64,000 bases of DNA, taken from positions 6,411 through 70,410 of the forward strand of contig JAFQAU010000264.1 in assembly GCA_017399885.1 (NCBI GenBank), written 5' to 3'. The DNA is from Lachnospiraceae bacterium (lineage in GTDB: Bacteria > Bacillota > Clostridia > Lachnospirales > Lachnospiraceae). Position 1 is the first letter of the stretch. Each line of letters begins with the position of its first letter. Under the pieces are notes generated by a model. It made no database searches. It saw nothing but the letters and a program-made list of their open reading frames with translations, and had not been told where the DNA came from. The translations under genes were made by a program, and so were the position numbers. Shown in pieces: positions 24,390 to 41,950 of this stretch.

Positions 24390-24450
24390 ATTGTCTCCTC
24401 GTATAATAAGTTTCTATATATTCAACTAAATGACATGGAAGACTAACCTG

Positions 24451-26598: not shown

Positions 26599-26607
26599 TT
26601 TTTACTC

Positions 26608-27771
26608 CTATTTATCTGCTAGCATGGTATATGGTGCAAGAAGAATATCGTCATTAGCCTCTTTTCTACTTTCGCATACTTTTCCAGTTGTATCTAATAC
26701 AGATTGCTCTGTACTTTTTTCTTCACTTACTGTTTTTGTTTCATAGACAATTTTTTTGTCATAATCAAATAGTCGAACACTTATTGTTTTGTCAGAATTT
26801 TTTTCTGCTTTATAAAAAATTTCTTCTTTGCCGTCTGTTAGATTTTTCCTTTTAATATTGTAAGCAGAATCAATGTAATACAGATTTTGTTCTAACACCA
26901 TAAAATCTTTATAGCTATTCTGGCATACACAGGATACTTCCGCACTCTCTGTATGGTATGCATATATACTATCTATTATTTCATTGGAATCTTCTTTCGT
27001 CTTTCCCATTTGGAATAAGACATACTTTCCATATGGTTTTATCCTATAGATGGAAGTGCCTTTTCCCGATACTTCATAAAGACTTTCTACCTGCGCGTTG
27101 GTTTCTAGCTTTATTCGATACAGTGTTGCTTCTTCACATCCCATATAATAATCCGTAAAGTATACATATCCTCTATGTATTTGCATTTCCGGCATATAAT
27201 ATCTTGTAGAAATTTCATCTCCATCCTCTTTTTCTTCTACATACTGTCTCATTACTTTACAAATTTTCTCCCGCACAGCACCATCCGGGCTTATTTTACA
27301 AATCCAGATGTATTCTTCCTCTATCATTGGTGTATACAAATCTCCCTCATAATTCCATAATATCCCCATAGGAAAGTTTTCTTCCTTAAAATAAGCATTA
27401 CAAGAATCGCTACTATGCTCACAATTGCTTTTTCCACAAACGTATACCGTTTCTCCTGTTGCATAATCAAAGTATTGTAAATAGCTTCCACTTTGTTTGC
27501 CTTGGATACCATCCATCCCCTCAGTTTCATAACGTCCCTCTTTTGTATATACTGTTGTGGAATAGCTTGGTCGATTAGATTGGCAATCCGTTTCATACGC
27601 ATAACCATAATCAGATTCTTGTATCATTTCCGATTTACCGGCATCTGTAATTTCTATTTGTTCCTTGGTATCTTTTGTGCCTTTGCTATTTGTTTCCGTC
27701 GATGCACAGCCGGAAAATAAAAACATACCTCCCGCTAACATTAGTGTACATAAATAATAATTTTTCTTCAT
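26608..27771 (-). CDS. Lipoprotein, probably beta-propeller (DUF5050-like)
   Basis: Lipobox LFSGCAS. Repeated aromatic-rich strands such as YVYFTDYY, LYRIKL and NLYYIDSAYNIKRKNL. Confidence 0.5.
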   Translation of the reverse strand: MKKNYYLCTLMLAGGMFLFSGCASTETNSKGTKDTKEQIEITDAGKSEMIQESDYGYAYETDCQSNRPSYSTTVYTKEGRYETEGMDGIQGKQSGSYLQYFDYATGETVYVCGKSNCEHSSDSCNAYFKEENFPMGILWNYEGDLYTPMIEEEYIWICKISPDGAVREKICKVMRQYVEEKEDGDEISTRYYMPEMQIHRGYVYFTDYYMGCEEATLYRIKLETNAQVESLYEVSGKGTSIYRIKPYGKYVLFQMGKTKEDSNEIIDSIYAYHTESAEVSCVCQNSYKDFMVLEQNLYYIDSAYNIKRKNLTDGKEEIFYKAEKNSDKTISVRLFDYDKKIVYETKTVSEEKSTEQSVLDTTGKVCESRKEANDDILLAPYTMLADK

Positions 27772-27889
27772 AAGTTTCCCATCCTTTGTTCTATTTATAC
27801 TCTATTGATAAACTACTCCTATGTTAAGAAATTCTCAACATAGGAGTTCAATTTAGTATCTGCTCATGGTTCTTAAATTATTGCACAAA

Positions 27890-28273
27890 TTAGTATGTTG
27901 CGATTGCAGATAATATTACGTTACCTTCTGTATAAAGGGACACATAAGATTTTAGCTTTTGTCCACTATATGACTTAACAAATTCACATGAATCTCCTGC
28001 ATGATGTGTTACTTTTAATGTGCCACCACCTTGTTTTGTTTTGGTCACATCGTATGAAAAATATTGATCCTTATATGCATAATACTCATAACCTTTCACA
28101 CGTATCCAATGATTTCCAGAACTGCCAGAATTAAAAGTTGTAGTTACTTTCTTGTCTGAAGTCGCCAATACTGCACTAATGGAAGCCGCATAACACTTAT
28201 TACCTGTAATTAACAACATTGCAAATGCAAGTGCTAAAAATGAACCTATACTTTTCTTTAATTTCCTTTTCAT
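27890..28273 (-). CDS. Small secreted protein of unknown function; first gene of the cassette-driven operon
   Basis: 127 aa. Sec signal peptide ending CYA-AS. No family recognised. Confidence 0.6.
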   Translation of the reverse strand: MKRKLKKSIGSFLALAFAMLLITGNKCYAASISAVLATSDKKVTTTFNSGSSGNHWIRVKGYEYYAYKDQYFSYDVTKTKQGGGTLKVTHHAGDSCEFVKSYSGQKLKSYVSLYTEGNVILSAIATY

Positions 28274-28383
28274 AATAATACCATTCCTTCCTTCTCTTTT
28301 CTATTATCTTTTTTGATGAATTATGAAACTTTTCATAGATATATTTTCACCATATATCTTTTTTCTCCTCCTTTCTCCGAAAC

Positions 28384-28470
28384 ATTATACCCCATTCCCT
28401 TTTCAAAATCTTTGAATCCATGGGGATAATTTTTGTCGATTTTTGTCGGTTTTTGTCGATTTCTTTCCAA
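28384..28470 (-). promoter_or_regulatory. TGTCG-box promoter cassette E1
   Basis: Boxes TGTCGA, TGTCGG and TGTCGA at 28434, 28444 and 28454. Conserved AAAATCTTTGAATCCATGGGGAT. Minus-strand TATAAT at 28389-28384. Confidence 0.6.
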
Positions 28471-28484
28471 CAATTATATTTTTA

Positions 28485-28513
28485 TTGAGATTTTAATCTT
28501 TTAATGTTAGAAT
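28485..28513 (+). promoter_or_regulatory. Plus-facing promoter, homologous to the promoter of the Spo0A-like regulator gene, now reading into the IS
   Basis: TTGAGA, 17 nt spacer, TAGAAT with a TGT extended -10. Near-identical to 37278-37306. Confidence 0.55.
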
Positions 28514-28632
28514 ACACTTAGTTATATTTTGAACATATCGGTAACAGGTCAATCTCCTGTTAAACCAAAGTCTTTTACTTAATTTCGTAATCCTATGTTA
28601 AGCTTGGAATACTATAACACCGTAACTTTATA

Positions 28633-30309
28633 CCTGAATCCGTGAAACTGAATATTTTTTTATGCTGCTTCGCTTGATTTCTTTCGAAGCAGCATGTATG
28701 TATTGAATATAACAATTTTTCCTCTCTAAAATTAAAAATTGTGCTATAAAAGGGCAGACTTCTCCCACTGCAGTAAAAATTACATTTTGAATTGTTCTTT
28801 TTATAGACTGAAATCTGCAAATGCAGTATAAACTTCTGAAAACGTATATCTCCATACATTACTTTTCCCGAGCCCGATAACCAATTGCCTTGCGTGTGTC
28901 GTTACATGACTTGCCATCATGATTAGGTTGCTTATTACCGTTCTCAGTCTACGACGTTTTACTTTATGCCTTGTTTTGCGTCTTCCAATGGTTTCCTGTC
29001 CAATCATACGCAGAATGTTGTATGCCAAAATTGTCAACTCCAGCACCAGCTCGTTTGTATCAAACTTTCCTGAAGGAAGACGTTCCACATCCATATCTGT
29101 TTTTATTTCACTGTGGAACTGTTCACATTCTCCGTGGGCATGGTAATGTCTGATTACTTCATCATCTGTCATTCCGGTGTTTTCCCACCATGTTTCCACC
29201 TCCACTTCTGCCGGAAAAAGAAACTGGCCTTTTTTGTCTATGGTTCGTTATGATTTCATATCCAATACGAATTGTAACTGTTTTTAAAATTCCATCTTCT
29301 GCAGTATAAGAAATATCTTTCCAATCACTTCCTGTATAGATGATTTTTCCCTCACGTGGTTTTGTGATGTTCTGACAGTGTTTTTGTGCCATTACAAGCC
29401 ATTCTTCCTTACTTTCACGACGTAGGTTTCTTTTAATGATAAACTGACAGCCTTCTTCTAAAAGAATACCAATATCTTCAGTTGCATCATTTCCGGAGTC
29501 CAAACGTATCAAAAGAGGTTCATTTGTAATCTGTTTACACAGGCGGATTGTTTCGCGTAAAAATTCCGGTGTGTGTTTCTGACAGTGCTGCTTTCCTTCC
29601 CTTAGTTCAGCATTAATTAAATAGCCTTCTGTTCCTATATATGCCATGATAGGTGCGTATCCGTCGTATCCTTTGTAGGTGCGTGATACGCCTTCTTTCT
29701 TGGTTTTTGAGTTATCAAATGGAGTAACATCAATGTCTACCGGAACATATCCACTTGGAAGTCTGCCTGGAACTATTCCGTTGGAACACAACATTTTCAC
29801 ATTTTCAGACAGAATTATTTCACGCATAGAACTGCCAATGTCATCCATTCTCTGACGAAGTGTTTCCTCTGAAGGCAGTGCTCTTACGATGCCCAGTGTA
29901 TCCTTGTAGAATTCAATATCATCATCCATCTCATGAACAGCTCCATACTGTGGTTTTCCCATACATAGCATGCCGATATAAGTAAGCAGAATGTCTCCGT
30001 TTTTTATCTGATGCTGTGACCTGTTTTTGGTAACATCCATCCGGTTACAGTGCTTCACAAAATCGCTTTTTCCAAGAATTGCACCAACAATAGAAAGACC
30101 ACTTGCAGGAATAATGCGTTCATTTGTAAATTCAATCTTTATCTTACTCATACAACCTGCTCCTTAAAATAGTTTTCTGCTAAGATTATTATAACAGAAA
30201 AAAGTAGCACCGAATGGGTGAATTTTGAATTATACAAAAAATAACGAAATAATGTGCTTGCTCCTATACTTAAAGGGTTATGTAATTATGTGAGTTTCAC
30301 GGATTAAGG
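28633..30309 (-). mobile_element. IS1380-family insertion sequence (about 1.68 kb)
   Basis: Terminal inverted repeats CCTGAATCCGTGAAACT (28633-28649) and AGTTTCACGGATTAAGG (30293-30309). They enclose the transposase reading frames. Confidence 0.75.
28801..30151 (-). pseudogene. IS1380-family DDE transposase split by a frameshift
   Basis: The 329-aa and 134-aa ORFs overlap. Motifs VDIDVTPFDNSKTKKEGVSRTYKGYDGYAP, IRLDSGND and HGECEQFHSEIKTDMDVERLPSGKFDTNE. The frames switch at the T6 run (A6 on the coding strand) at 29230-29235. Confidence 0.7.
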
Positions 30310-31355
30310 TTTTTGGTTACAGCATTTCTTACCTTTATGACACTTCCGGGAACCTCTGATCCTATTCTTACAAGCTTTTTTCCGCCTTTTATTATCATTT
30401 TCCCGTTTACTATAGGAATGAGCATACAGGCAAATGAAATCCCCCGCTCCACTTTGGTCAATCTTTCTCCTGTTACGAAATCTACTCCTGTTACAGCTTC
30501 TTGGGCATCCTTTATATCTCCCAATACCGGCATTGTACTTATACCTGCGGATGCCACGCCTTCCACTATTTCTTCTGTTTGTTTCGTTTTTAAAATAGAA
30601 TTTTCTAGAGTGACACTAAGTTCCCACTGTTTTTGGATAGCTTCTTCTATCTCTTTTCCGTTTTCGTCATAATACTTTTCACAAGCTTCCTTCATCTCTT
30701 TTAAGTCCATGTAAGCTTGTGTATGAAAGCAACTTCTTTTTTCATAATCTGTTATTCTACGATTTTCCGATTGTCGGGATTGGATAAAATTTCTGGTATC
30801 TCTGATTAACCCTTCTAAAGACTCTATCTCATTCTGGCAAAAAGAAGCATCCAGTTGTGCTATCTTCCATTCCGTTTCCGTCAGGTCTTCGATTCTCTTG
30901 TCATAATCAATTCGTATGGCATCTGTAGATAAAGATTGGATTTCTACAATATCCTCTATTGAACGCAAATCTGCATTAATATCTTCTATGATATCATCCA
31001 GTTCAAAATATGTAAACTTAATATGCCCCTTCATCTCTTCCAAAGGATCTTCCGGTATTCTTGCATGTGGGTCACTATCCACGTTTTCCATAAATTGATT
31101 GGCATATAAATTAATCTTGCTATAAAAATCATCTAATATCATTCGGATAGAACTAAGGATAGTTTGGTGTACTTCTTGAAAGTAATCCTTAATATTTATT
31201 GCTGCTTTTCCTTGAAATTCTTCTATTTCCTGCAAGGCATCTATTTGTGTCTGTAAGGTGTCTATCATTTCTGCACATGCATTTAGTGATTGAAAGCTTT
31301 TTTCACGAAACAGACGTATTTTCTCATAATCCAGCACAAAAAGGTGTTTATCCAT
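30297..31355 (-). CDS. LXG-domain polymorphic toxin N-terminal module with a pre-toxin TG domain; the C-terminal toxin domain is missing (truncated by the IS)
   Basis: LXG-type N-terminus (FQGKAAINIKDYFQEVH). PT-TG motif PVLGDIKDAQEAVTGVDFVTGERL. The last codons and the stop lie inside the IS inverted repeat. Confidence 0.75.
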   Translation of the reverse strand: MDKHLFVLDYEKIRLFREKSFQSLNACAEMIDTLQTQIDALQEIEEFQGKAAINIKDYFQEVHQTILSSIRMILDDFYSKINLYANQFMENVDSDPHARIPEDPLEEMKGHIKFTYFELDDIIEDINADLRSIEDIVEIQSLSTDAIRIDYDKRIEDLTETEWKIAQLDASFCQNEIESLEGLIRDTRNFIQSRQSENRRITDYEKRSCFHTQAYMDLKEMKEACEKYYDENGKEIEEAIQKQWELSVTLENSILKTKQTEEIVEGVASAGISTMPVLGDIKDAQEAVTGVDFVTGERLTKVERGISFACMLIPIVNGKMIIKGGKKLVRIGSEVPGSVIKVRNAVTKNLNP

Positions 31356-31437
31356 TTCTTTTCTCCAATTCTGTTACAATTTTCTAACTACCCCTAAAAT
31401 TACATTTTTGTGTTACTCTCCCCCCTACTACCTCAAT

Positions 31438-31518
31438 AATATACCTCGTTCTCTTTTACAAATCTTTGAATCCATGGTTGTCAATTAGTGTGGGTTTTTG
31501 TCGGTTTCTTTCCAAAAG
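31438..31518 (-). promoter_or_regulatory. TGTCG-box promoter cassette E2 (degenerate)
   Basis: CAAATCTTTGAATCCATGG, then TGTCA, TGTGG and TGTCG at 31479, 31489 and 31499. Minus-strand TATATT at 31443-31438. Confidence 0.5.
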
Positions 31519-31763
31519 TAACAACGCAGTAGACAATAATTGTCTGGTATCAGCTGGTAGATTTTTTTTATGCTCATAAAAAACACACCCTTTCGAAACA
31601 TTTTTCTTGTTGCTAAGAGTGCGTTTATATCAGCCTATTGGAAATTCATATCAAGTTTTTTCTTTCGTATACCTAAGGGCAAATTTCAATTTAAACATTC
31701 CATTCCCGCTGGTAATGGACTAAAAAATTTGAGATAGTGAAGTCCTAAAGTATAACCATAATA

Positions 31764-31803
31764 CATGCTACAATAGCCATACGCCTTGTTTTGAATCGCT
31801 TAC
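31764..31803 (-). repeat. Second copy of the 18601-18663 terminator module
   Basis: CATGCTACAATAGCCATACGCCTTGTTTTGAATCGCTTAC. Its first 21 nt are the exact reverse complement of 18601-18621. Confidence 0.7.
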
Positions 31804-31828
31804 GGATAAATAGCATAAATGACCCATT

Positions 31829-32503
31829 CTATATGTCCACCCTTCCATCCTTCATAACAAGTACCCGGTCAGCTCTTTTGGCCAAATCTAAATCATGGGT
31901 AACCAATAAAATAGTCTGTGAAAATGCTTCTTGACATTCTTTTAACAGATCCATTACCTCAAGAGAGTTTTCTTTATCCAGATTCCCTGTTGGTTCATCC
32001 GCTAAGATCAAAAGTGGCTTAGAAATCATAGCTCTTGCTATGGCAACCCTTTGTCTTTGTCCCCCTGACAATTGATCCGGCATACGATTTAATAGCTGTT
32101 CAATTCCCAGCCTTTTTGTTAATACATGAAAATATTCCCAATCTATACTACTGCTATCTAATTGTACCGGGATTAATATATTGTCTTTTACTGTTAATAT
32201 GCTAATTAATTGGTAAGATTGATAAATAAAACCAATCTTTCTTCTTCGAAATTCTGCTTGTTTGATTTTGTTATATGCAATAATATTCTCTCCTCCAATG
32301 TAAATTTCTCCACTATCTGCCTTATCTAAAGTACCAAGCACATTTAAAAGCGTAGACTTACCACTTCCACTTTTCCCAAGGATGGCAACACATTCTCCTT
32401 TTCTTACCTGAAAGGATACTTTATTCAATACTTGCACTGCACTATCTCCCTCGCCATATTGCTTACATAAGTCCTTTACTTTTATCATATACTTTTCTTC
32501 CAT
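31829..32503 (-). CDS. ABC transporter ATP-binding protein (FtsE/MacB/LolD-like) with no cognate permease
   Basis: [35 protein letters not shown]. Confidence 0.85.
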
Positions 32504-32644
32504 TTCTTTTACCAGACCTTCCTAACATTTTATTCCAATGGTTCAAAATATGGATTCTTCCATATAATCATATGAACTACAACTATTCTTATCTTCCAAG
32601 TTCTCCTTTTGCAATACAGAAGGAACTCCATTTATCGACCAAAT

Positions 32645-32720
32645 AGTATACCCCAATTTCTTTCCAAAATCTTTGAATCCATGGGGATCATTTTTGTCGG
32701 TTTTTGTCGGTTTCTTTCCA
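32645..32720 (-). promoter_or_regulatory. TGTCG-box promoter cassette E3
   Basis: Boxes TGTCGG at 32695 and 32705. Minus-strand TATACT at 32650-32645. The cassette matches E4 over about 70 nt. Confidence 0.6.
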
Positions 32721-32834
32721 AAATTATATTTTTAATAGCAATTCAACCATGTCATTCGTATTTTTTCAGAATATACATTAAGACAAAAAAATATACATCC
32801 AGACTGGCAAAACACTTATGTCTAGCGTTAACCA

Positions 32835-33058
32835 GAACAAAGTGGACAAGTCCACTTCAACTCCCTAAATCCCTCATTCATGAGGGACTTGCTCCACTTT
32901 ATGTGCCAGATGCGTGTTGCATGCCTTTTGCAACAATGTTCCTTACGCATCTACTCTGTACGCTATTTTACTAAAACTCGTACCTCGTTAAGTAAAATAT
33001 GTGTGTGCAAATCCTCGCGGAGCTTTTTTGCTTTATAGGACGAAGTTTCCTATAAAAA
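32835..33058 (+). repeat. 225-bp four-hairpin repeat, copy 1
   Basis: Near-identical to 56053-56277. Internal stems: AAAGTGGACAAGTCC/GGACTTGCTCCACTTT, CCCTCAT/ATGAGGG, GATGCGT/ACGCATC, TTTTACT/AGTAAAA and CTTTATAGGA/TCCTATAAAG. Confidence 0.85.
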
Positions 33059-33067
33059 GTAAAAAAA

Positions 33068-33126
33068 ATATGTGTAAGTTGACTATGAGAGCAAATTCTC
33101 ATGTGCAACTTACACATATTTTTTTC
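33068..33126. terminator. Bidirectional rho-independent terminator (ends the 36842-33250 operon)
   Basis: ATATGTGTAAGTTG...CAACTTACACATAT, flanked by A8 and T7. Confidence 0.8.
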
Positions 33127-33249
33127 ATGACTAAACTGTTACGAAAAATTCAGATATACCCGTTGTCTCGCATAAATTCTTTATAATTCATGCTCCCTCA
33201 CTTTCCTATTGCTTGGTAGTCTGTGATTTTTCCGAAAGACATCCTATGT

Positions 33250-33993
33250 TTAACCTTCCACCTGATATTTTTCCATACAGCGTTTTATAATCTCGTGCTT
33301 TATTTTATTTCTGATTTCTAAAATTTTTTCTTCTTTGCAAAAAAATTCATAGTCCTTTATATCTCCATATGTATAAATAAACTCCTTACTATCTGGCATT
33401 AATTGGGTTGTATCTTTATCAATTTTAAGGTAAGAAAAATATCCACCTGATAGACTATAATAGTTTTTATAACCAAACTTATCCAGCTTTAAGTCTTCTT
33501 CCTTTGACAAACCACTGGAAGTCTGAAATGAATTTATAAATATTAAATACTGATTTTCTTCCTGCATTAAACTTCTATAATCTGCATACATTGCTAATTG
33601 GTTCTTTTCATTCCATTTGAATCCATCTACATCAGATATCCAAATGGTTTGGTCTGCAAGTTCTTCTTCCTTTCCTTTTAATACATTAAGAACCCGAACC
33701 TCTTGTACTCCCAAATAAGAATCGCTTATGTAATTTCCCGTAGGTTCTCCTATCACAATGCATTCACAGTCATCCCACTCTGTTACATAATAATCAAAAT
33801 ATTTTATGTAGTGTTTTTTATACTCCTTTTTGCTTTCTAATCCACCCTCTATTTGAATTTCTCTGTCATCAAAATCACTTAAATGACTAGCGTATTCAAT
33901 GCCCACATCTGTAAATTTTGTTTTTCCATATTGTCCAATCAATCCAACAGCAATGTAAAAAATAAGAAATAATAGAATTCGTTTTTTTATCAT
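33250..33993 (-). CDS. Membrane-anchored extracytoplasmic protein of unknown function
   Basis: Single N-terminal TM (ILLFLIFYIAVGLIG). 247 aa. Last gene of the operon. Confidence 0.55.
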   Translation of the reverse strand: MIKKRILLFLIFYIAVGLIGQYGKTKFTDVGIEYASHLSDFDDREIQIEGGLESKKEYKKHYIKYFDYYVTEWDDCECIVIGEPTGNYISDSYLGVQEVRVLNVLKGKEEELADQTIWISDVDGFKWNEKNQLAMYADYRSLMQEENQYLIFINSFQTSSGLSKEEDLKLDKFGYKNYYSLSGGYFSYLKIDKDTTQLMPDSKEFIYTYGDIKDYEFFCKEEKILEIRNKIKHEIIKRCMEKYQVEG

Positions 33994-34036
33994 TCTCTTC
34001 CCTGCTTTCTATCAGTTATTGTTACGTTATTATCAC

Positions 34037-34666
34037 TTATGATTCTAATAAAACACCGTGGTTTATAGGAAATACTTTATCACAAAGTGTTTCTATGTCC
34101 AAAGAATTATGGCTTGCAATAACGATAATAGCACCTCTTTTGGCTTCTTCTAAAACCAACTTATGAAACAACTCCACACTTTTATTATCTAATGCATTAG
34201 TTGGTTCATCCAATAATAGTACCTTAGGCTTCTCCATGATTGCCTGTGCCAAAATTAATTTTTGTCTCATTCCTAGGGAATATTTCTTTATATGACGCTT
34301 ATCCTTTGGATCTAATCCCACTCTTTTTAGGGCATCTTTTATTTCTTCTTTTCCAACAATTCCATTTATCTTGGCTAAGTATAATAAGTTGTCCATGGCT
34401 GATAAATCAGGGAATAATCCTATATTTTCCAATACTAAACCAACATTTTTTAATTTATGATTCGGTACTTCTTTTCCATCCACTAAAATTGTTCCTTCAC
34501 TAGGACTGATTAAACCGGAAAGCATTCGAATCAACATACTTTTTCCGGAACCATTTGGCCCAATTAAACCATATATTTTTCCACTCTCTAATTGCATATG
34601 AATATTATCTAATACTCTTTGGTTTTGAATACTTTTTCCAATTCCCACCAGTTCAATTCTCTCCAT
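34037..34666 (-). CDS. ABC transporter ATP-binding protein
   Basis: Start trimmed to MERIELVG (ATG 34666), just after the upstream stop. GPNGSGKSM, YSLGMRQKLILAQAI, LLLDEPT. Confidence 0.85.
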   Translation of the reverse strand: MERIELVGIGKSIQNQRVLDNIHMQLESGKIYGLIGPNGSGKSMLIRMLSGLISPSEGTILVDGKEVPNHKLKNVGLVLENIGLFPDLSAMDNLLYLAKINGIVGKEEIKDALKRVGLDPKDKRHIKKYSLGMRQKLILAQAIMEKPKVLLLDEPTNALDNKSVELFHKLVLEEAKRGAIIVIASHNSLDIETLCDKVFPINHGVLLES

Positions 34667-34668
34667 AT

Positions 34669-35430
34669 TTATACCTCTTCCATACCTAAAGACACATCTG
34701 TCTTTGCTAATTTTCTCACAACATATTCTGTTTCTAAAATACACAATCCAATATAATAAAATAGAATAACAAATTGCATAACTACAGAATCTACCAAATA
34801 TACAGAAAGTGCATTTACCGGATTCCAAAAAGATAACCAATGGTACGCTCCAATCACAGGAATTTGCTCAAATTTCAGGCAAAGTTGTACCAAAAGTATC
34901 AATCCCAGATATCCCGAAAAAAATCCTACTGCAATTTGTGTTTTTACTGCTATAAAATTGATCCCTATAATCATTTGGTACATCAGTATAGTGTAAGCAA
35001 GACTCATTAGTAAAAACAATTCTATTATTTCCATATTTGGCCCTGTTTTTGTTTTCAGACAGCATAATATAAATATGCTTGTAAAATAACTAATAGAAAA
35101 AAAGAAGGCACTTACTAAGAGTTCTTTCATTCTTTTTCGAAACCAATCCGCCCTATTTTCTACTCGAAGTAATACGTAAATTCCTGGACCAAAAAAGTCT
35201 TGGTATAAAACCATTCCAAAGAAAAGAGAAAACACCACCACACCCACCATATTTTCCATGGTTAAAATAAAGGATTGATGGGACAAAATTGTTTTCATAT
35301 CAAAGGTAGCACTTAAAAAAAGCTGGTGTATGGGAATCCCTTCTTCACAGTCCCCAATTAACAAATAAAAATTTATACAAAGGGAAAGCAGAAAGGCAAC
35401 TATGCTTATTTTTCCAATTTTCTTTTTCAT
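34669..35430 (-). CDS. Polytopic membrane protein (putative ABC-2 permease subunit)
   Basis: Start trimmed to MKKKIGKISIV (ATG 35430), a 4-bp overlap with the upstream gene. About 6 TM segments. Confidence 0.6.
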   Translation of the reverse strand: MKKKIGKISIVAFLLSLCINFYLLIGDCEEGIPIHQLFLSATFDMKTILSHQSFILTMENMVGVVVFSLFFGMVLYQDFFGPGIYVLLRVENRADWFRKRMKELLVSAFFFSISYFTSIFILCCLKTKTGPNMEIIELFLLMSLAYTILMYQMIIGINFIAVKTQIAVGFFSGYLGLILLVQLCLKFEQIPVIGAYHWLSFWNPVNALSVYLVDSVVMQFVILFYYIGLCILETEYVVRKLAKTDVSLGMEEV

Positions 35431-36272
35431 TGTAATTGGTTCTCCTCTCGTTTTATGTGAATCCAAAAAACAGCCAAACTAAGGAAAAGGATTCCTATGT
35501 AAAGGAAAGGCACCTTCCATTCTGAAATTCCAAAATAATTTTGAATTACAACCAGATTATTAATATCCGTATGAATTAATCTCACCCCATAACGGTGAAA
35601 TAGCCAAAATAGGGCATAATTTGGCACAAAGATTAAAAGCTTGTATTTTTTTACAATATGTGCAGTTACAAATGCCACAATTCCACAAATTCCCGCCAGT
35701 ATTCCAATTTGTATAGAAAATAGTACATTGTATAATGTGGGATGTGCTATATAAAACTCTGGAAATAAGAGAAGTGCATGTTCTAGTCCTTCTTCTGCAT
35801 AAAAAACATTGGTAAAAAAAACATCCCGTTGCCCATAATAAGATTCCTGGGTATTATGTATGGTAAAATAATTTAATAAAATATTCCAAAACAGTGGTAC
35901 AACCATAACAATAAAACCTCCAAGAAAACAAGCGGCAAGCTTCCCTACGTAATAAACTCTTTTTTCTGTTCTACAAAGACTATAGATATCTGCTTTTTTT
36001 TCTTTTTCATCAAAATAGTGTAATGCAAAAGGCATAGACACGATAATAGGAAAAAGATATAGAAATTTATCTGCATAAGGCGCGTACTCAAAACATGCAA
36101 ACCACTCACTACTTCTTATAACATTAGAAATATCCATTCCCATATTTTCTGTAATCAGTTTTATATAAGTGAGTGCACAATAAACACTCATGATACCCAA
36201 TGAAATCCAAAATGTTTTCGTCTGAAACATTAAGTAACACTGCGCCCAAATGCTCCGTATGTATTTTTTCAC
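35427..36272 (-). CDS. Polytopic membrane protein (putative ABC-2 permease subunit)
   Basis: 281 aa, about 6 TM segments, in the operon. Confidence 0.6.
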   Translation of the reverse strand: MKKYIRSIWAQCYLMFQTKTFWISLGIMSVYCALTYIKLITENMGMDISNVIRSSEWFACFEYAPYADKFLYLFPIIVSMPFALHYFDEKEKKADIYSLCRTEKRVYYVGKLAACFLGGFIVMVVPLFWNILLNYFTIHNTQESYYGQRDVFFTNVFYAEEGLEHALLLFPEFYIAHPTLYNVLFSIQIGILAGICGIVAFVTAHIVKKYKLLIFVPNYALFWLFHRYGVRLIHTDINNLVVIQNYFGISEWKVPFLYIGILFLSLAVFWIHIKREENQLQ

Positions 36273-36413
36273 TTTTTACTTCCTCTCTTTACTTCCATAT
36301 TTTCTAGTGTAGTTTCATATCTTCTACATATTCACCATGTTTATTCTGAACTTATATAGGAAATCACCTATATAAGTTCAGAATAAAATATCACAACTCC
36401 TTTGTTGGATAAT

Positions 36414-36842
36414 TTAATTTGTATCTACATCAAATTGTCCTGAAATTTTACAATCCAAGGCTGGATCGTTTCCCATTGCCCTAAAATTAATACAAACTCC
36501 TGGTCTTCGATATTCGCTTTTTAATTTGTATACACTATTCTTATCTTTTCTTAGAGTAACTTCATTCTTATTATCCAAAACATTGGAACCATTACTTCTA
36601 AATCTTGCTTTTATTTTTTTATAATTTGATTCGCTTCCATCTGCTTTATAGATATCATATAAGTCGACTGCTATTGAACTTTTATCAGTTGCTTTTGAAC
36701 AAGATGCTATTTTTGTAAATTCATTACTGTCAACATATGCATACTGAAATTGCGTTGCAACTGCATCTACACTTACACTTCCTGCTATTGATGTAATTAT
36801 TACTGCTCCGACCATTATTTTTTTTAATTTGTTATTAAACAT
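36414..36842 (-). CDS. Small secreted protein of unknown function; first gene of the cassette-driven operon
   Basis: Start trimmed to MFNNKLKKIMVGAVIITSIAGSVSVDA (signal peptide). Mature part about 115 aa with two Cys pairs possible. Confidence 0.6.
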   Translation of the reverse strand: MFNNKLKKIMVGAVIITSIAGSVSVDAVATQFQYAYVDSNEFTKIASCSKATDKSSIAVDLYDIYKADGSESNYKKIKARFRSNGSNVLDNKNEVTLRKDKNSVYKLKSEYRRPGVCINFRAMGNDPALDCKISGQFDVDTN

Positions 36843-37033
36843 ATTTAGTTTCCTTTCTTTTACACATTGTATCACATTTATAGGTGTATGGCAAAACATC
36901 AGAAATTTTATTTTGCTCCTATGTTACTCTACTACTTTAAAATCCTATATTCTCATCTTTTACACTTTTCATTAATATTAAAAAATAATAGACATGTAGA
37001 GTTTTTCTTCACTCCTCCTCTCTCCGTTTGCAC

Positions 37034-37222
37034 AGTATACTACAATTTCTTTCCAAAATCTTTGAATCCATGGGGATCATTTTTGTCGGTTTTTGTCGGT
37101 TTTTGTCGGTTTCTTTCCAAAATCTTTGAATCCATGGGGATCATTTTTGTCGGTTTTTGTCGGTTTCTTTCCAAAATCTTTGAATTTTTGGGGATCTGTT
37201 TTGTCGGTTTCTTTCCAAAAAT
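37034..37222 (-). promoter_or_regulatory. TGTCG-box promoter cassette E4, tandemly triplicated (six boxes)
   Basis: The unit TTTCCAAAATCTTTGAATCCATGGGGATCA(TTTTTGTCGG)n repeats three times. Boxes at 37084, 37094, 37104, 37148, 37158 and 37202. Minus-strand TATACT at 37039-37034. Confidence 0.65.
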
Positions 37223-37277
37223 TATATTTTTGCATAGCTGAACTCTTAGGAACTATTTAAATTTATTCTGAATTTTA

Positions 37278-37306
37278 TTGAGATTTTAATTTTTTAATGT
37301 TAGAAT
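37278..37306 (+). promoter_or_regulatory. Promoter of the Spo0A-like regulator gene
   Basis: TTGAGA (37278-37283), 17 nt spacer, TAGAAT (37301-37306) preceded by TGT. About 70 bp downstream of the last box. Confidence 0.55.
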
Positions 37307-37405
37307 ATCATTAGTCATATTGTGAATATTTAGAACCATAAATCCTACCAAAGCTTGAAATACAATAACACTCTAATCTAATAGGATAAATAGAAAGGAA
37401 CAAAA

Positions 37406-38188
37406 ATGAAACATCCACTTAGTGTACTGTTAATTGAAGATGAGCAGATTGTATGTGACAGCTTTCGATATACCATAGAAGAATATCCTGACATCCATTT
37501 AGTTGCTGTTACGAATAAAATATCAGAAGGGATTTCCTTTACAAAGAAGTATATACCCAATGTGATTTTGTTAGATTTAGAACTGCATAATGGGGAGGGA
37601 AATGGTCTGATATTTTTAAAAGAGCTCCAGAATATCTCTTTAGAAATTAAACCTTACATTCTGATTACTACCAATAACTCCAGTCAATCCACCTACCGTT
37701 TTGCAAGACAGTTAGGCGCAGATATGATTATGTACAAGTATCAGAATGATTACACAGAAAAAAATGTAATTGATTTTCTTGCCATGATAGGTGACATGCT
37801 GTTGGAGAATCAGTATTCTTCCACAGCACATAGTAGTTCTACTCCATCACCTTTCGAAGAACGTCAGTCAATTCGCAGACAAATCAGCCGAGAATTGGAT
37901 TGTTTAGAAATGAGTCCCAAGATTGTAGGTTATCAATACCTTATAGACGCCATTGTACTCTTCATGGATAATTCCAATGAAAACATTTGCAAGGTGCTGG
38001 CGAAAAAGTATCATAAAACTCCCGGCAGTGTTGATCGTGGCATGCGCAATGCAATCAACAGTACGTGGAATAAAACAGCTCCTGACATTTTATTTACACA
38101 TTATACCGGTAGAGTCTCCTCAGACAAGGGAACACCTACAGTCATGGAATTCATTTCCTACTTTGCACGCAAATTCAAGTGCAAATAA
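37406..38188 (+). CDS. Response regulator with a Spo0A-type C-terminal DNA-binding domain (Spo0A paralog)
   Basis: Receiver domain (LLIEDEQ, ILLDLELH). The C-terminal domain aligns by eye to Spo0A_C: KIVGYQYLIDAI, AKKYHKTPGSVDRGMRNAINSTW and GTPTVMEFISYFARKF. Confidence 0.8.
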   Translation: MKHPLSVLLIEDEQIVCDSFRYTIEEYPDIHLVAVTNKISEGISFTKKYIPNVILLDLELHNGEGNGLIFLKELQNISLEIKPYILITTNNSSQSTYRFARQLGADMIMYKYQNDYTEKNVIDFLAMIGDMLLENQYSSTAHSSSTPSPFEERQSIRRQISRELDCLEMSPKIVGYQYLIDAIVLFMDNSNENICKVLAKKYHKTPGSVDRGMRNAINSTWNKTAPDILFTHYTGRVSSDKGTPTVMEFISYFARKFKCK

Positions 38189-38315
38189 CCTTTATGTTTA
38201 AAAGTTATTAATTAATATTGACCATAAGTAGTCTAACAACATGAAATCAGCTCCTTTTCTGTAAAGTAAGAATAGAATACTGATTTTTTTTCATTTTTTA
38301 TTTGAAAACATGACT

Positions 38316-38350
38316 GTCAATTTCTGTCGATTTTTGGGGGTTTTTGTCCA
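38316..38350 (+). promoter_or_regulatory. Phased TGTC boxes (E5) immediately upstream of the kinase gene
   Basis: TGTCA at 38316, TGTCG at 38326 and TGTCC at 38346, on a 10-bp register. Confidence 0.4.
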
Positions 38351-39855
38351 TGATTGAAAAAAACGTATTTTTATCATTGATTCGATATATGTGCATTGTT
38401 TTTTGTACTTCCTACATATACGAAAAGCTTATCCATGCAAAAGGACATATACAGAAAAATTTATGCTTTAATTTATTCTTCGGAATTGGTATGAGTATAC
38501 TGGCGTTATCCCTGCCTAGAGAACTGCATTTTTTTATCATGCCTACCATAGGGTGTATCTTTATTCTTTATTTTAAAAAACAATATACTTATCCCATTGA
38601 AAGCATATTCACAGGTGTTATTCTGTCTATGAGCATGTGCTATAGCTTTTTTTACATTGCAACAGTTTTTATTATTATAGTTCTTTGCATACCTTGCTAC
38701 CTATTGTTTCACCACATGTTTTATTTTGTTACATTACAATTGTTCTTTGCCTTATTCCAAACACTGTTTTGTTTTTTGTTTTTTCGCATAAAACGTTTCA
38801 AACATGGAATGTCTTTTTTGAAAAAAAGCTATATTGCAAACCTAGGAGTTTATATTGGAAGCATCATTCTAATCTGTGCAATGGTTGTTTCTAGCGTACC
38901 AAAAAATGTGGAAACAGAAGATCGCTTCTTTTTTTTACTTTTATTTCCAATCGTTATTATTTTATTTTTTAATATCTATATTTGGTGCAAACATCATTTA
39001 CGCAAACAATATATGCAACAGGTGAGAGAACGGGAATATACCCGACTGGAAGAACAATTTGCCCAAAGCTTACAGGAAATAAAAATGCTAAAAGAAGAAA
39101 ATGAAACCCTTAGCAAACTGGTTCATAGAGATAATAAATTAATTCCCTCTATGCAACTGGCGGTTCAGCAATATCTTAGTTCTTTGCATCCGGATAATGC
39201 CAAAGAACTAGAAGTCACGGGGCAGAGACTCTTAGAACAGCTGAATCAGGAAATGCAGGATAGGAATGAAACCTTATTTTCTATTACCTCTCTAAAAAAA
39301 CAGTTACCAACTACATCTATCCCTACGTTAGATCTATGTCTACAGTATATGTGGTACAAATGCGAAGCGGAAAATATTTCTCTTAATATGACCGTGGCCG
39401 AGAATATTTCCCCATTAATTGACACAATTTCAGCGAAGGATTTGCAAACCTTGTTAGCAGACCTACTGGAAAACGCACGAATTGCATTAAAAAATTGTGA
39501 TAAAAGAAATATTCTTATTCAAATAGAAATTGATAATAGTGTGCCATCTCTTGCTGTTTGGGATAGTGCCTCTGTATTTCCCAAGGAGGTTTTATACCAT
39601 TTTGGCAAGAAACGTTATACCACCCACAAAAAAGATGGTGGCAGTGGTATTGGTATGATTGCCATACAAGAAATATTACAACGTTATCAAGCGTCTATTA
39701 TCATTGACGAAAAATTAACGGAAGAAACACTTTATAAAAAAAAGGTTGAAATTTCCTTTGATAATCAATATGCTTATATTTTACACACAGAACGTTCTCT
39801 AGAGGAATATGCTTATTTAAGCAGACGGGATAACTTACAAATTTTTGCAGAATAA
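38344..39855 (+). CDS. Polytopic sensor kinase with an AgrC-like GHKL domain (the true start is probably ATG 38350)
   Basis: About 6-7 TM segments, a coiled-coil linker, a possible H-box LVHRDNKLIP, and an ATPase region DLLENARIAL...GGSGIGMIAIQEIL. Confidence 0.7.
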   Translation: MSMIEKNVFLSLIRYMCIVFCTSYIYEKLIHAKGHIQKNLCFNLFFGIGMSILALSLPRELHFFIMPTIGCIFILYFKKQYTYPIESIFTGVILSMSMCYSFFYIATVFIIIVLCIPCYLLFHHMFYFVTLQLFFALFQTLFCFLFFRIKRFKHGMSFLKKSYIANLGVYIGSIILICAMVVSSVPKNVETEDRFFFLLLFPIVIILFFNIYIWCKHHLRKQYMQQVREREYTRLEEQFAQSLQEIKMLKEENETLSKLVHRDNKLIPSMQLAVQQYLSSLHPDNAKELEVTGQRLLEQLNQEMQDRNETLFSITSLKKQLPTTSIPTLDLCLQYMWYKCEAENISLNMTVAENISPLIDTISAKDLQTLLADLLENARIALKNCDKRNILIQIEIDNSVPSLAVWDSASVFPKEVLYHFGKKRYTTHKKDGGSGIGMIAIQEILQRYQASIIIDEKLTEETLYKKKVEISFDNQYAYILHTERSLEEYAYLSRRDNLQIFAE

Positions 39856-39942
39856 GGTATGGCAAAGCATGCAAGCATATGAGGAAATATAATGTGGCAA
39901 ATGCGTGCTTACACCCTATGTCATTTATGGAAGGAGTTTTTT

Positions 39943-41013: not shown

Positions 41014-41148
41014 TACTATAATTCCGGTGACATATAAATCTTTACATTCTCTTTGGAATTATGTTACTATTAAACCAAAAGTGGTGTGATATAACCACAG
41101 ATAACAAAAGTTACATGAATGAAATACATTTGTGAAAGGATTTTATTT

Positions 41149-41828: not shown

Positions 41829-41950
41829 CATTGAGTTAGGTATATCTTTGCATTTACCGGGCTGACTGTAGGAAAGAATATATCATGAATAGATTGGGGC
41901 AATCAACCATGTGATTGCCCCTGTGGAAACAGCTATTTCATTTCTGTATT

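Follow-up and report, generated by a model that had tools for sequence, protein, structure and literature searches.

A Spo0A-type response regulator, its histidine kinase and 10-bp-phased box arrays in a repeated control region of a Lachnospiraceae genome

The 64-kb stretch of Lachnospiraceae DNA analyzed here (the window) harbors, on a gene island of gut-Clostridia type, a gene for a response regulator with a Spo0A-type DNA-binding domain, followed by a histidine kinase gene, and a repeated cassette of phased TGTCG(G/A) boxes in their surroundings. This combination, pointed out in an initial annotation of the window, was confirmed as real. Taken as a whole it is probably best explained by a two-component system that has the arrays as its operator and a bidirectional control region that was copied. 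The features are listed in Table 1.

Table 1. Features of the regulator region in the window.
Feature	Position	Strand	Basis or remark
Operon 1: 127-aa secreted protein, 387-aa lipoprotein, 715-aa polytopic permease, ABC ATPase	23496..28273	-	
Cassette E1; boxes TGTCGA, TGTCGG, TGTCGA at 28434/28444/28454	28382..28470	+	
Regulator-gene leader remnant, cut off by IS	28480..28632	+	similarity to window leader, L107
IS element, DDE_Tnp_1_4 transposase split by frameshift	28633..30309	-	terminal inverted repeats CCTGAATCCGTGAAACT / AGTTTCACGGATTAAGG
LXG / pre-toxin-TG polymorphic toxin gene, cut short before toxin domain	30297..31355	-	
Cassette E2, degenerate; boxes TGTCAA, TGTGGG, TGTCGG at 31479/31489/31499	31438..31517	+	
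Stand-alone ABC ATPase gene, MacB/LolD type, downstream of 32.6-kb cassette	31829..32503	-	
32.6-kb cassette; boxes TGTCGG twice, at 32695/32705	32643..32731	+	
Operon 2: 142-aa secreted protein, 281-aa and 265-aa polytopic membrane proteins, ABC ATPase, 247-aa protein	33250..36842	-	
Control region E3/E4; three tandem cassette units of 64, 54 and 44 bp	37032..37231	+	
Promoter-like TTGTCG-N16-TATATT, last box as -35 element	37201..37228	+	
Canonical sigma-A-like promoter TTGAGA-N17-TAGAAT, TG extension	37278..37306	+	100 bp upstream of regulator start codon
Response regulator, receiver and Spo0A_C DNA-binding domain, 260 aa	37406..38188	+	Pfam, TIGR02875, fold
Degenerate box array TGTCAA, TGTCGA, TGGGGG, TGTCCA, regulator-kinase junction	38315..38350	+	
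Cognate polytopic histidine kinase	38344..39855	+	HATPase_c_5, hydrophobic segments, conserved boxes

The regulator and its kinase

Both domains that had been assigned to the regulator in that annotation match their Pfam profiles above the cut-off, namely Response_reg over residues 7-112 (E 3.8e-10) and Spo0A_C (PF08769) over residues 160-256, where positions 1-103 of the 104 in the profile are covered (E 7.9e-20, 71 bits vs a cut-off of 25). D12, D57, T88/T89 and K111 of the receiver are invariant in the family alignment. The model of the C-terminal domain (pLDDT 93) has the Spo0A-C structures 1FC3 and 1LQ1 as its sole structural matches (TM 0.78-0.85). With TIGR02875, the Spo0A equivalog profile, the regulator scores 85 bits (E 4e-24) against a cut-off of 200 bits and is therefore not Spo0A proper, although it shares the type of DNA-binding domain; the same profile is matched by 34/34 aligned relatives, the best with an E value of 5.6e-36. 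These data support a Spo0A-type protein distinct from Spo0A itself, in agreement with the earlier view of a paralog rather than the sporulation master regulator, and no spo0A gene is found inside the 64-kb window. The paralog is not private to one genome but a member of a large and widespread family of more than 446 protein clusters.

The kinase, which is of the GHKL type, matches HATPase_c_5 (31 bits vs a cut-off of 22, Pfam) and contains about 6-7 hydrophobic segments within its first ~215 residues; its true start is likely the ATG at 38350. Across 53 kinases encoded downstream of family regulators H261 (V/I-H-x-D-N-K), N377, D407xG and G433xGxG are kept, and the gene order regulator to kinase is found in 43 of the 50 relatives with enough downstream DNA. 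While the adjacent, polytopic and cognate nature of the kinase is thereby upheld, the AgrC likeness originally ascribed to it is partial, as it concerns only the polytopic N-terminus and the type of catalytic domain; the partner regulator is not of the LytTR type. No agrB- or agrD-like genes were recognized among the ORFs examined in the window.

Phased boxes in the window and in the regulator family

The 17-mer TTTGAATCCATGGGGAT of the cassette occurs exactly at 28411, 32672, 37061 and 37125 and with 3 mismatches at 31465 and 37179, always on the plus strand, while the only other match with up to 3 mismatches in the 64 kb, at 17314 on the minus strand, is at chance level (7 matches in total vs 0.41 expected). 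For TGTCGR-N4-TGTCGR with at most 1 mismatch, 8 matches are found vs 0.06 expected in the 64-kb window, all within 28434-38330, and the exact 10-bp spacing of the boxes, confined to 28.4-38.4 kb, is thus borne out. Tandem Repeats Finder delimits period-10 arrays at 28429-28462, 32691-32713, 37080-37112, 37144-37166 and 38314-38333 as well as 64-bp and 54-bp super-repeats spanning 37046-37210; the TGTCGG boxes of the latter region begin at 37084/37094/37104, 37148/37158 and 37202. Out of the five loci initially counted as cassettes four are such, whereas the fifth, at 38315-38350, is a bare degenerate array without the cassette's left half, and its last box runs into the start codon of the kinase. 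In another clade, 11 loci have a comparable second array between the regulator and kinase genes, at +922 to +934 counted from the start of the regulator.

In 65 of 79 distinct relatives (41-53% identity) the 320 bp preceding the regulator gene contain a 10-bp-phased TTTTTGTTGG array that points the same way as the gene and adjoins a -10. Self-similarity is highest at lag 10 for 45 of the 72 distinct upstream regions. If one mismatch is allowed, the pattern [GTTG-N6]x3 yields 59 arrays in 447 kb, 55 of them up to 300 bp upstream of a regulator start in the orientation of the gene and none in the opposite orientation; a position weight matrix scan gives 81 matches, 65 of which lie in the regulator promoters of the 65 loci. 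This family-wide orientation therefore points to autoregulation. No paper on the operator or regulon of this family was found in the literature.

The residue Q of the recognition helix (S-V-E-R-A-M-Q-N-A-I) is found in 113 of 120 listed relatives, and core position 4 of the box is T in 99% and C in 0% of 165 units; these units come from loci chosen by the pattern [GTTG-N6]x3 with no more than one mismatch, a criterion that in part fixes the core. In contrast to the family majority, the three proteins of the window clade carry R at this position, as does Spo0A, and their boxes read TGTC (TGTCGG/A in the window and in the related contig L107, TGTCC in L110). As judged from these alignments, recognition helix and box covary, with Q going together with TGTTG in most of the family and R with TGTC in the window clade; a metagenomic variant (L149, a contig at 3x coverage) combines R with TGTTG boxes and runs counter to this. 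Spo0A makes base-specific contacts to G2, C4 and G5 of TGTCGAA (PMC3485338). The TGTCG core of this 0A box is shared by the window-clade boxes TTTTTGTCGG, with G5 not retained in L110. Based on array conservation in the relatives and on helix-box covariation, the arrays very probably represent the operator through which the regulator would control its own gene, and the predicted binding put forward in the initial annotation is thus strongly backed by phylogenetic footprinting.

The commonest starting points of the -10 in the family are 4, 9 and 14 nt past a box G; because the inspected 9-nt sites have TATAAT at 14 nt, the register is read as 4 or 14 nt. In the window clade, however, the plus-strand -10 begins 20 nt past the box G, and a canonical box-independent promoter is situated nearer to the regulator gene than the array. 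Due to this differing geometry and the nearer promoter, the effect of the array on the regulator gene appears less clear in this clade. The layout TTGTCG-N16-TATATT recurs at 28453-28480, a version of it with the spacer reduced to 15 nt lies at 32704-32730, and the TTGAGA-N17-TAGAAT promoter is duplicated at 28485-28513 (35 bases, 97% identical). The plus-strand promoter-like sites and TTGAGA-N17-TAGAAT are absent from the initial annotation.

Cassette copies and the adjoining minus-strand genes

Minus-strand -10 hexamers are found at 28384-28389 (TATAAT, E1), 31438-31443 (TATATT, E2), 32645-32650 (TATACT, 32.6-kb cassette) and 37034-37039 (TATACT, E3). The fixed 45 bp to the reference box previously stated for four cassettes holds for three of them, while at E2 it is 46 bp because of a 1-bp indel. 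The hexamer is kept at the same distance within 1 bp in the 75%-identical L110, where the DNA in between has diverged. Moreover, cassette conservation ends exactly at this hexamer in all four copies, and downstream of each copy a minus-strand start codon follows at a distance of 82-191 bp. The fixed distance and its retention in L110 suggest activator-dependent minus-strand promoters for the four neighboring units, and their control by the regulator is plausible. Relative to these units the boxes are reversed and about 45 bp from the -10, a geometry shown in no other family member. Within the 3-kb flanks available for most loci, arrays away from the own promoter or the regulator-kinase junction occur only in L188, L189 and L190, with the second array of L188 upstream of an ABC ATPase gene. 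There is little support for a multi-target use of arrays outside the window, since nearly all relatives carry them only at these two sites within the flanks.

The ATPases of operons 1 and 2 match ABC_tran (3.1e-30 and 1.7e-35, respectively), whereas the remaining proteins of both operons have no family match in Pfam or NCBIfam. The stand-alone ATPase matches an NCBIfam LolD-like family (1.7e-68) and a bacteriocin-export-type ABC family (5e-62), and the LXG ORF matches Pfam LXG (2.7e-22) and PT-TG (1e-12). This ORF terminates inside an inverted repeat of the IS element, which provides its last codons and stop codon, while the other IS end abuts the cut regulator leader (junction 28632/28633). 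The remnant is 88% identical to the regulator leader 37273-37329 over 57 nt. In contig L107 the E1-side DNA continues without a break into P0002, a regulator gene that shares 88% identity with that of the window, with the secreted-protein and regulator genes divergent. Since L107 carries a regulator gene in continuous DNA there, this comparison shows that E1 formerly had its own regulator gene and that the IS replaced it in the window, where it truncated the LXG gene as well. The cassette copies largely reflect duplication of the module ABC operon <- cassette -> regulator-kinase, one copy of which lost its regulator to the IS.

Proposed mechanism and alternative explanations

In the favored reading, 37406-39855 would encode a two-component system of conventional design that belongs to a large and so far uncharacterised family, the receiver taking phosphate from the adjacent membrane-embedded kinase with 6-7 transmembrane segments as the sensor. 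The phosphorylated regulator would bind head to tail on direct repeats one helical turn apart, for which TTTTTGTTGG is the consensus of the family and TTTTTGTCGG that of the window clade, and, with the array at or over the -35 region of its own promoter, would activate rather than repress, resulting in positive autoregulation. The window control region would be bidirectional and copied, each copy also facing a minus-strand -10 without a -35. One signal sensed by the kinase would thus govern a regulon of two ABC-exporter operons, both with the small secreted protein first, the stand-alone ABC ATPase and the LXG toxin gene. The copies would have arisen by duplication of the module, and one would later have lost regulator, kinase and LXG 3′ end in an IS-associated deletion.

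It is rather unlikely, but deserves consideration, that the arrays autoregulate only the plus-strand regulator-kinase operon and that the E1, 31.4-kb and 32.6-kb copies are relics of duplication and IS activity next to uncontrolled minus-strand genes. Family arrays follow the regulator gene's orientation and lie almost solely at its own promoter, the loss of the regulator gene from E1 is demonstrable, non-coding DNA into which a 223-bp repeat has inserted follows the 32.6-kb copy, and E2 is degenerate and lacks a plus-strand -10. The end of conservation at the minus-strand hexamer, its distance in L110, the nearby minus-strand start codons and the array preceding an ABC gene in L188 are not accounted for in this way. 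Quite improbable appears a role of the boxes as targets, or additional targets, of genuine Spo0A, which would tie the operons to the sporulation or stationary-phase decision instead of a private signal: TGTCGAT and TGTCGGT agree with the 0A box at 6/7 and 5/7 positions, the contacted bases included, and the window clade, having reverted to the Spo0A-like Arg, may share its specificity, but throughout the family the arrays accompany the gene of the paralog itself, and their sequence tracks the paralog's helix.

T tracts phased at one helical turn are a classic recipe for static bending, and T makes up 72-87% at each of positions 1-5 in the 10-bp unit. It is nevertheless highly improbable that the tracts work mainly as intrinsically curved, UP-element-like DNA, strengthening promoters close by with no dedicated protein involved, as the GTTG core is conserved above the T tract (90-99%, partly fixed by the collection criterion), covaries at one base with a recognition-helix residue and belongs to arrays specific to the promoters of one regulator family. 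Scarcely credible is a selfish miniature mobile element or replication-slippage product devoid of a regulatory role, in spite of the repetition, the local tandem duplication in 64/54/44-bp units and the breaking of metagenomic assemblies at the cassette. All copies share one orientation inside a single 10-kb stretch, the cassette sequences read have no terminal inverted repeats, a homologous cassette occupies the orthologous position in the 88%- and 75%-identical relatives, and the conservation of the box arrays extends across the family. When 185,579 genomes were scanned, 105 stretches with one match each were returned, about the number estimated by chance for a 17-mer in 596 Gb, and none of them had adjoining boxes.

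Dozens of unrelated metagenomic relatives share this layout, which makes this an uncharacterised regulator family and not a curiosity of one genome.

Domain architecture of the regulator and its pairing with a kinase

The 260-residue regulator had been annotated from the sequence as a receiver joined to a Spo0A-like DNA-binding domain, yet as too divergent for the sporulation master regulator, and profile searches agree with both statements. Pfam assigns residues 7-112 to Response_reg (E 3.8e-10) and residues 160-256 to Spo0A_C (PF08769), the latter over profile positions 1-103 of 104 (E 7.9e-20; 71.3 bits against a cut-off of 25). TIGR02875, the NCBIfam equivalog model of Spo0A, is matched with 85.3 bits (E 4e-24), which is below its cut-off of 200 bits; it is also matched by all 34 aligned family members, with a best E-value of 5.6e-36. 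In these 34 sequences D12, D57, T88/T89 and K111 are invariant, consistent with a functional receiver.

In a comparison with PDB sequences, residues 170-258 in the C-terminal half of the regulator match only the Spo0A effector domains, entries 1FC3 and 1LQ1, with E about 2.5e-6. As a fold search with the full-length protein is dominated by the receiver, the C-terminal domain was searched alone. Its AlphaFold model (residues 150-260; pLDDT 93.1, pTM 0.87) likewise finds 1FC3 and 1LQ1 as the only significant matches in the PDB (TM 0.76-0.86, rmsd 1.8-3.3 Å), the next structure having E > 1, and the structural alignments give 24-28% identity to Spo0A-C. The predicted model displays the six-helix Spo0A-C fold with its helix-turn-helix. 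Because only these two structures are matched, whereas 85 of the required 200 bits are reached, the domain is assigned to the Spo0A_C fold and the protein is not assigned to the equivalog; judged by its sequence, the regulator is Spo0A-type but not Spo0A itself. Spo0A proper is needed for sporulation and acts on spoIIA, spoIIE and spoIIG; no sporulation genes adjoin the cassettes among the window ORFs annotated with Pfam and NCBIfam. The plasmid and phage collections contain no close match, the phage matches being only 22-31% identical.

A protein search (E <= 1e-5) yields at least 446 clusters, and the best 120 of these, from which the sequence details are taken, comprise proteins of 254-286 residues with both domains in all. 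Identity to the window regulator is 44-53% among the matches listed, three close relatives excepted, and sources that give them a name use 'response regulator' or 'Spo0A C-terminal domain-containing protein'. The sources named for family members include Lachnospiraceae, Anaerocolumna, Herbinix and Clostridium, and at least 493 relatives were confirmed in a metagenome scan. Contigs with the same regulator, or with one of 75-88% identity, span no more than 1-1.6 kb and end at the repeats; upstream DNA of close relatives is usable only from the metagenomic loci L107, L109 and L110. A 'gene' at L109:1-141 was discarded as a spurious read-through of the cassette.

Beyond the regulator gene, after 155 bp and on the same strand, begins the kinase gene, which encodes 503 residues with a GHKL-type HATPase_c_5 domain (PF14501; 31 bits against a Pfam cut-off of 22). 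In a hydropathy scan the N-terminus shows eight overlapping peaks between residues 8 and 216, which correspond to some 6-7 segments, and lacks a large extracellular domain, as in polytopic sensors of the AgrC type (HPK10). The designation 'AgrC-like' is therefore apt for the polytopic N-terminus and HATPase_c_5, but not for the partner, whose output domain is Spo0A_C and not LytTR. Genes resembling agrB or agrD were recognised neither among window ORFs of at least 40 residues at 22-42 kb nor among the ORFs scanned against Pfam and NCBIfam. Directly 3′ of the kinase lies a second, unrelated two-component system (see table).

Fifty distinct relatives have at least 2 kb of downstream DNA. In 41 of them a same-strand ORF of at least 380 residues follows the regulator and two more have a recognisable kinase homolog, giving a kinase 3′ of the regulator in 43 of 50. 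Conservation across 53 kinases downstream of family regulators covers the phospho-accepting histidine (V/I-H-x-D-N-K) as well as the N, G1 and G2 boxes. Adjacency and conserved catalytic boxes together thus argue for a conventional regulator-kinase pair instead of an orphan fed by a phosphorelay. For seven regulators (L135, L157, L160, L187, L191, L194 and L196) the 3 kb that follow contain no kinase homolog, and several of these (L187, L191 and L194) also lack a box array in a listing of self-similarity at lag 10; such kinase-less regulators may be orphan or decaying members.

Box arrays, promoters and layout of the island

Coordinates of features in the window (L110, a metagenomic locus with a related regulator)
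Feature	Position	Strand	Remarks
Regulator gene	37406-38188	+	
Kinase gene	38344-39855	+	
Second two-component system	39892-41772		HisKA_3 kinase and NarL/GerE-type regulator
Cassette E1	28382-28470		
Cassette E2	31438-31517		
32.6-kb cassette copy	32643-32731		
Cassettes E3/E4	37032-37231		
17-mer TTTGAATCCATGGGGAT, exact	28411, 32672, 37061, 37125	+	
17-mer, 3 mismatches	31465, 37179	+	
17-mer, 3 mismatches	17314	-	sole further match in 64 kb
64- and 54-bp super-repeats	37046-37210		Tandem Repeats Finder, which also reports the period-10 arrays
Degenerate box array	38315-38350		over kinase start codon
Promoter-like TTGTCG-N16-TATATT	28453-28480, 37201-37228	+	last box doubles as -35-like hexamer
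Promoter-like, N15 spacer version	32704-32730	+	last box as -35-like hexamer
Canonical TTGAGA-N17-TAGAAT with TG extension	28485-28513, 37278-37306	+	downstream of box-linked sites
Putative leaders with strong Shine-Dalgarno-like runs	28333-28383, 31390-31437, 36990-37033, L110:1-37	-	e.g. GGAGAAAGGAGGAG, GGAGAGAGGAGGAG
Operon 1	23496-28273	-	
Operon 2	33250-36842	-	
LXG gene	30297-31355	-	
ABC ATPase gene	31829-32503	-	
IS element, 1.68 kb	28633-30309		17-nt terminal inverted repeats; frameshifted DDE_Tnp_1_4 transposase in 329-aa and 134-aa ORFs
223-bp repeat	32834-33056, 56052-56274		95.5% identical; hairpin at 32838-32859
223-bp repeat, partial copies	41771-41829, 50039-50067		
42-bp coding tandem repeat	23207-23315		2.6 copies, 92% matches; in ORF 22370-23374, with reiterated QLEQEQLEKQTFKS peptide and no Pfam match
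26-31-nt sequence	31761-31802, 18594-18662		96-97% identical; first copy is region upstream of ABC ATPase stop; both orientations at 18.6 kb

The phasing of TGTCG(G/A) boxes at 10 bp, as proposed in the initial annotation, is borne out: with one mismatch allowed, TGTCGR-N4-TGTCGR is matched 8 times where 0.06 matches are expected, and all of these are confined to 28434-38330. The 17-mer common to the cassettes has seven matches in 64 kb against 0.41 expected. Four of the five loci put forward as cassettes stand, while the fifth is a bare degenerate box array over the kinase start codon.

A cassette repeated in this way might be a miniature inverted-repeat transposable element (MITE), a class marked by terminal inverted repeats, target-site duplication and many copies dispersed in either orientation, or a structured RNA. 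The former is argued against by the confinement of all copies to one strand and to 10 kb, by the lack of terminal inverted repeats in the cassette sequences read and by the outcome of a 17-mer scan of 185,579 representative genomes, one per species, which finds 105 stretches with one match each, none with adjoining boxes and no multi-copy genome; by our estimate, 105 single matches are about the number that a 17-mer gives by chance. A known RNA element is likewise not indicated, since an Rfam scan of 27.5-39 kb returns nothing relevant. The imperfect palindrome TTCCAAAATCTTTGAA within the cassette, considered as the site of a second protein, was set aside as it is not conserved in L110.

Across the family, arrays of the same period are found upstream of the regulator genes. 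Of 72 distinct upstream regions, 45 have their best self-similarity at lag 10 when lags from 6 to 20 are compared. Three successive GTTG-N6 units with at most one mismatch occur 59 times in 447 kb, 55 times within 300 bp upstream of a regulator start in the orientation of the gene and never there in the opposite one. The position weight matrix derived from 165 units reads TTTTTGTTGG as its consensus, the G-T-T-G core standing at 90-99%, and scanning with three such units in register detects 81 sites, 65 of which lie in regulator promoters (65 of 79 distinct loci). The number of boxes ranges from 2 to at least 9. Three units each precede the regulator in L112, L113 and L116, and the longest array seen, in L119, has at least nine TTTTTGT(A/T)GG units, which run into GTGGTATATTAT and fill the 148-bp divergent intergenic region (L119:7854-8000) that separates the regulator gene from a DnaJ-FHA-PP2C-VWA-Ser/Thr kinase operon. 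The -10 element starts most often 4, 9 or 14 nt after the box G; the register is read as 4 or 14 nt, since the 9-nt sites inspected have TATAAT at 14 nt, and with this register the boxes occupy the -35 region and beyond. Arrays at the regulators' own promoters throughout the family are thus what one would expect if the response regulator controlled its own gene through an operator of tandem repeats.

Further arrays are observed at other positions. Eleven loci of one clade, and likewise the window, have a second array at the regulator-kinase junction, and L188 has one some 230 bp ahead of a gene for an ABC ATPase. L189 (6095-6300) and L190 (5990-6075, minus strand) harbor an extra array plus -10 ahead of a short hairpin-terminated region, the hairpin being a long G+C-rich stem in the former and only terminator-like in the latter; each region contains an ORF of 9-13 residues (MSKKKIATI; MKKPLAVVQTVLSL). 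The regulator may thereby control small RNAs or genes for peptides, which would be of interest because the family kinases resemble peptide sensors.

On the plus strand of the window, promoter-like sites that use the last box as a -35-like hexamer are followed by canonical sites at E1 and E3/E4 (see table), which suggests a putative basal promoter in addition to an inducible one. The box-to-(-10) register of this strand is +20, as against the family norm of +4 or +14. On the minus strand all four cassettes end exactly at a TATAAT, TATATT or TATACT hexamer, with a start codon 82-191 bp downstream. As had been proposed, these hexamers have no recognisable -35, none being present at 16-18 bp in the four cassettes. 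Their distance to the reference box, described as a fixed 45 bp, is 46 bp at E2 and so 45-46 bp across the four, and L110 retains TATACT at 46 bp despite diverged intervening sequence. From this arrangement, control of the minus-strand units by the regulator is plausible, with the balance tilting slightly in its favour. A GGAG(G)-like purine run lies within about 10-25 nt of the minus-strand -10 in the window cassettes and L110, weakest at the 32.6-kb copy. Tiny ORFs follow the purine runs at E1 (MVKIYL) and at E2 (an ATG-TAA start-stop). These leader elements could be 5′ mRNA stabilisers or leader peptides.

The present layout of the island appears rearranged. L107 is near-identical to window 27.9-28.63 kb, comprising a secreted-protein gene, cassette E1 and a leader, which in L107 runs directly into a regulator gene (encoding P0002) and in the window ends at 28632. 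One end of the adjoining IS element cuts this regulator-gene leader; the LXG/PT-TG gene takes its final codons and its stop from the far end and for this reason has no toxin domain. The continuity in L107 together with the IS junctions therefore points to an IS-associated deletion of one regulator-kinase pair, and the ancestral order would thus have been operon 1 <- E1 -> regulator-kinase ... LXG <- E2; this implies that the deletion also took the toxin domain and any immunity genes. The surviving pair has a like layout (operon 2 <- E3/E4 -> regulator-kinase). The 32.6-kb copy has the ABC ATPase gene on its minus side and on its plus side only non-coding DNA with the 223-bp repeat, which is unrelated to the cassette and has the appearance of a small mobile or REP-like element of intergenic DNA. 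Operons 1 and 2 are each headed by a small secreted protein, but these two are not homologous, so neither operon is a simple duplicate of the other. Apart from the ATPases, the proteins of both operons match no curated family in Pfam or NCBIfam.

Recognition helix and box position 4

The recognition helix S-(V/I/L)-(E/D/Q)-(R/H/K)-x-(M/I/L)-Q-N-(A/S)-I is found in 113 of the 120 matches listed, most commonly as S-V-E-R-A-M-Q-N-A-I. In the 165 units taken from the triple GTTG-N6 arrays, core position 4 is T in 99% and C in 0%, a value partly fixed by the selection criterion; GTTG boxes are also seen throughout the unbiased lag-10 listing. The window protein, P0002 (88%) and P0003 (75%) possess the helix S-V-D-R-G-(M/I)-R-N-A-I, thus with arginine at the position of the family's glutamine, and at the aligned position Spo0A has arginine as well (E-R-A-I-R-H-A-I). 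By manual count, 16 of 18 window boxes have C at position 4 and none has T. Related boxes are TGTCGG and TGTCGA in L107 and TGTCC in L110. The window boxes, TGTCGG or TGTCGA, have the TGTCG core in common with the 0A box TGTCGAA; the rest of the family has TGTTGG.

Arginine usually goes with a G:C pair and glutamine with an A:T pair. We infer that the Q/R residue of the helix reads box position 4; in Spo0A, base-specific contacts are made to G2, C4 and G5 of TGTCGAA (PMC3485338). An exception to the covariation is L149, a contig of 3x coverage, in which R occurs together with TGTTG boxes. In P0012 (L200:62-844) the helix R and Q are replaced by H and K (S-V-E-H-G-M-K-N-A-I); no cognate kinase is located downstream, and the contig begins 61 bp upstream of the gene, so that boxes are beyond reach. 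The covariation of Q/R with T/C would constitute a clean natural experiment on target change by a Spo0A-type helix-turn-helix.

Relation to known systems and proposed role

Spo0A of B. subtilis and C. difficile resembles the window regulator in its receiver plus Spo0A_C architecture, its C-terminal fold (TM 0.78-0.85), the recognition helix S-V-(E/D)-R-x-(I/M)-R-x-A-I, which is kept in the window clade, the box core TGTCG including G2, C4 and G5, and autoregulation, which is predicted for the window regulator. Reportedly, in work by Zhao et al. from 2002, two Spo0A domains are positioned head to tail on boxes 10 bp apart. Spo0A is fed by a phosphorelay or by orphan PAS kinases, whereas here an adjacent cognate polytopic kinase is present, the predicted operators are perfect-phase arrays of 2-9 boxes, and the neighbours are ABC exporters, secreted proteins and polymorphic toxins instead of sporulation genes. 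Most of the family furthermore has Q for R and TGTTG for TGTCG.

The pho boxes of PhoB/PhoP-type (OmpR-family) regulators are direct repeats phased at about one turn, located at or near the -35 of promoters without a good -35; binding is head to tail, the regulator-kinase operon is positively autoregulated and the array is common to the promoters of the regulon. The phased direct repeats have their counterpart here, where the other features are predicted; the DNA-binding family is unrelated, that of PhoB/PhoP being winged-helix with a period of 11 bp. AgrCA, ComDE and VirSR (HPK10 with LytTR) share with the present system a polytopic HATPase_c_5 kinase without large extracellular domain and direct repeats upstream of an operon that is autoinduced, here by prediction, but their output domain is LytTR, their 9-bp repeats are separated by 12-bp spacers instead of being phased at 10 bp, and the H-box here is V/I-H-x-D-N-K. 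BceRS-BceAB, CprRK-CprABC and LanRK-LanFEG likewise combine a two-component system with ABC exporter operons thought to be induced, and operon 2 with its ATPase, two membrane proteins of about 270 residues and small accessory proteins is LanFEG-like in composition; their regulators, however, are OmpR-type and their kinases have two transmembrane segments. As no curated family is matched by any protein of the two operons other than the ATPases, the likeness to these antimicrobial-peptide detoxification modules is only architectural.

Since the kinase has no extracellular domain, the signal is, from its sequence, most likely membrane-associated or a peptide. Upon sensing, the kinase would phosphorylate D57 of the regulator, the phosphorylated regulator would oligomerise head to tail on the array, and the array-bound form would switch on the regulator-kinase operon itself and, within this island, also the exporter and toxin units on either side. 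The cargo near family members comprises ABC exporters (window, L188), the FHA/PP2C/VWA/kinase operon of L119 and secreted proteins (L116). In L113 a gene for a polymorphic toxin with Ntox15 precedes three immunity genes of the GAD-like/Tdi1 kind (14208-16786), some 5 kb away from the regulator-kinase pair, which echoes the LXG gene beside the cassettes of the window. Such variable cargo fits an accessory, competition-related role and suggests that the systems may serve interbacterial competition in the gut. An accessory role also agrees with the report that mobile elements of gut Firmicutes are enriched in PF08769 (PMC6907783).

Galperin and colleagues described two spo0A paralogs in 10 Clostridiales genomes and three in Anaerostipes hadrus. 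Clo1313_0637 of C. thermocellum, 49% identical to B. subtilis Spo0A, is referred to as 'second Spo0A', Faecalibacterium has three Spo0A homologs, and phage-encoded Spo0A-C copies consist of the effector domain only. Spo0A_C has been taken as a marker that 'uniquely distinguishes Spo0A' (PMC6136694). A cognate kinase, operator or regulon of non-Spo0A Spo0A_C paralogs was not found described in the open-access literature. The system reported here is a two-component system with a predicted tandem-repeat operator on the Spo0A effector fold.

Taken jointly, Spo0A_C might not be a signature of the sporulation switch but serve as output domain in ordinary two-component systems of accessory islands, which form a widespread family found mostly in gut Clostridia; the regulators would autoinduce via 10-bp-phased arrays and control antagonism or defence cargo (ABC exporters, secreted proteins, polymorphic toxins), the helix Q or R would set box base 4 to T or C, and the window clade would have re-created a 0A-like box. 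We advance this combined reading tentatively, as less likely than not to hold. If it is true, the pairing of Q/R with T/C would amount to a simple and readable code for specificity through which paralogous systems can diverge, and the re-created 0A-like box of the window clade could cross-talk with genuine Spo0A.

In gut genomes and metagenomes, the capacity to sporulate is gauged by the presence of spo0A. A large non-Spo0A family with Spo0A_C would lead to false positives in domain-based annotation of Spo0A and sporulation, and it may explain some of the Spo0A homologs reported in non-spore-formers. With the predicted operator TTTTTGTYGG at 10-bp spacing, the regulons of the family should become readable from complete genomes.
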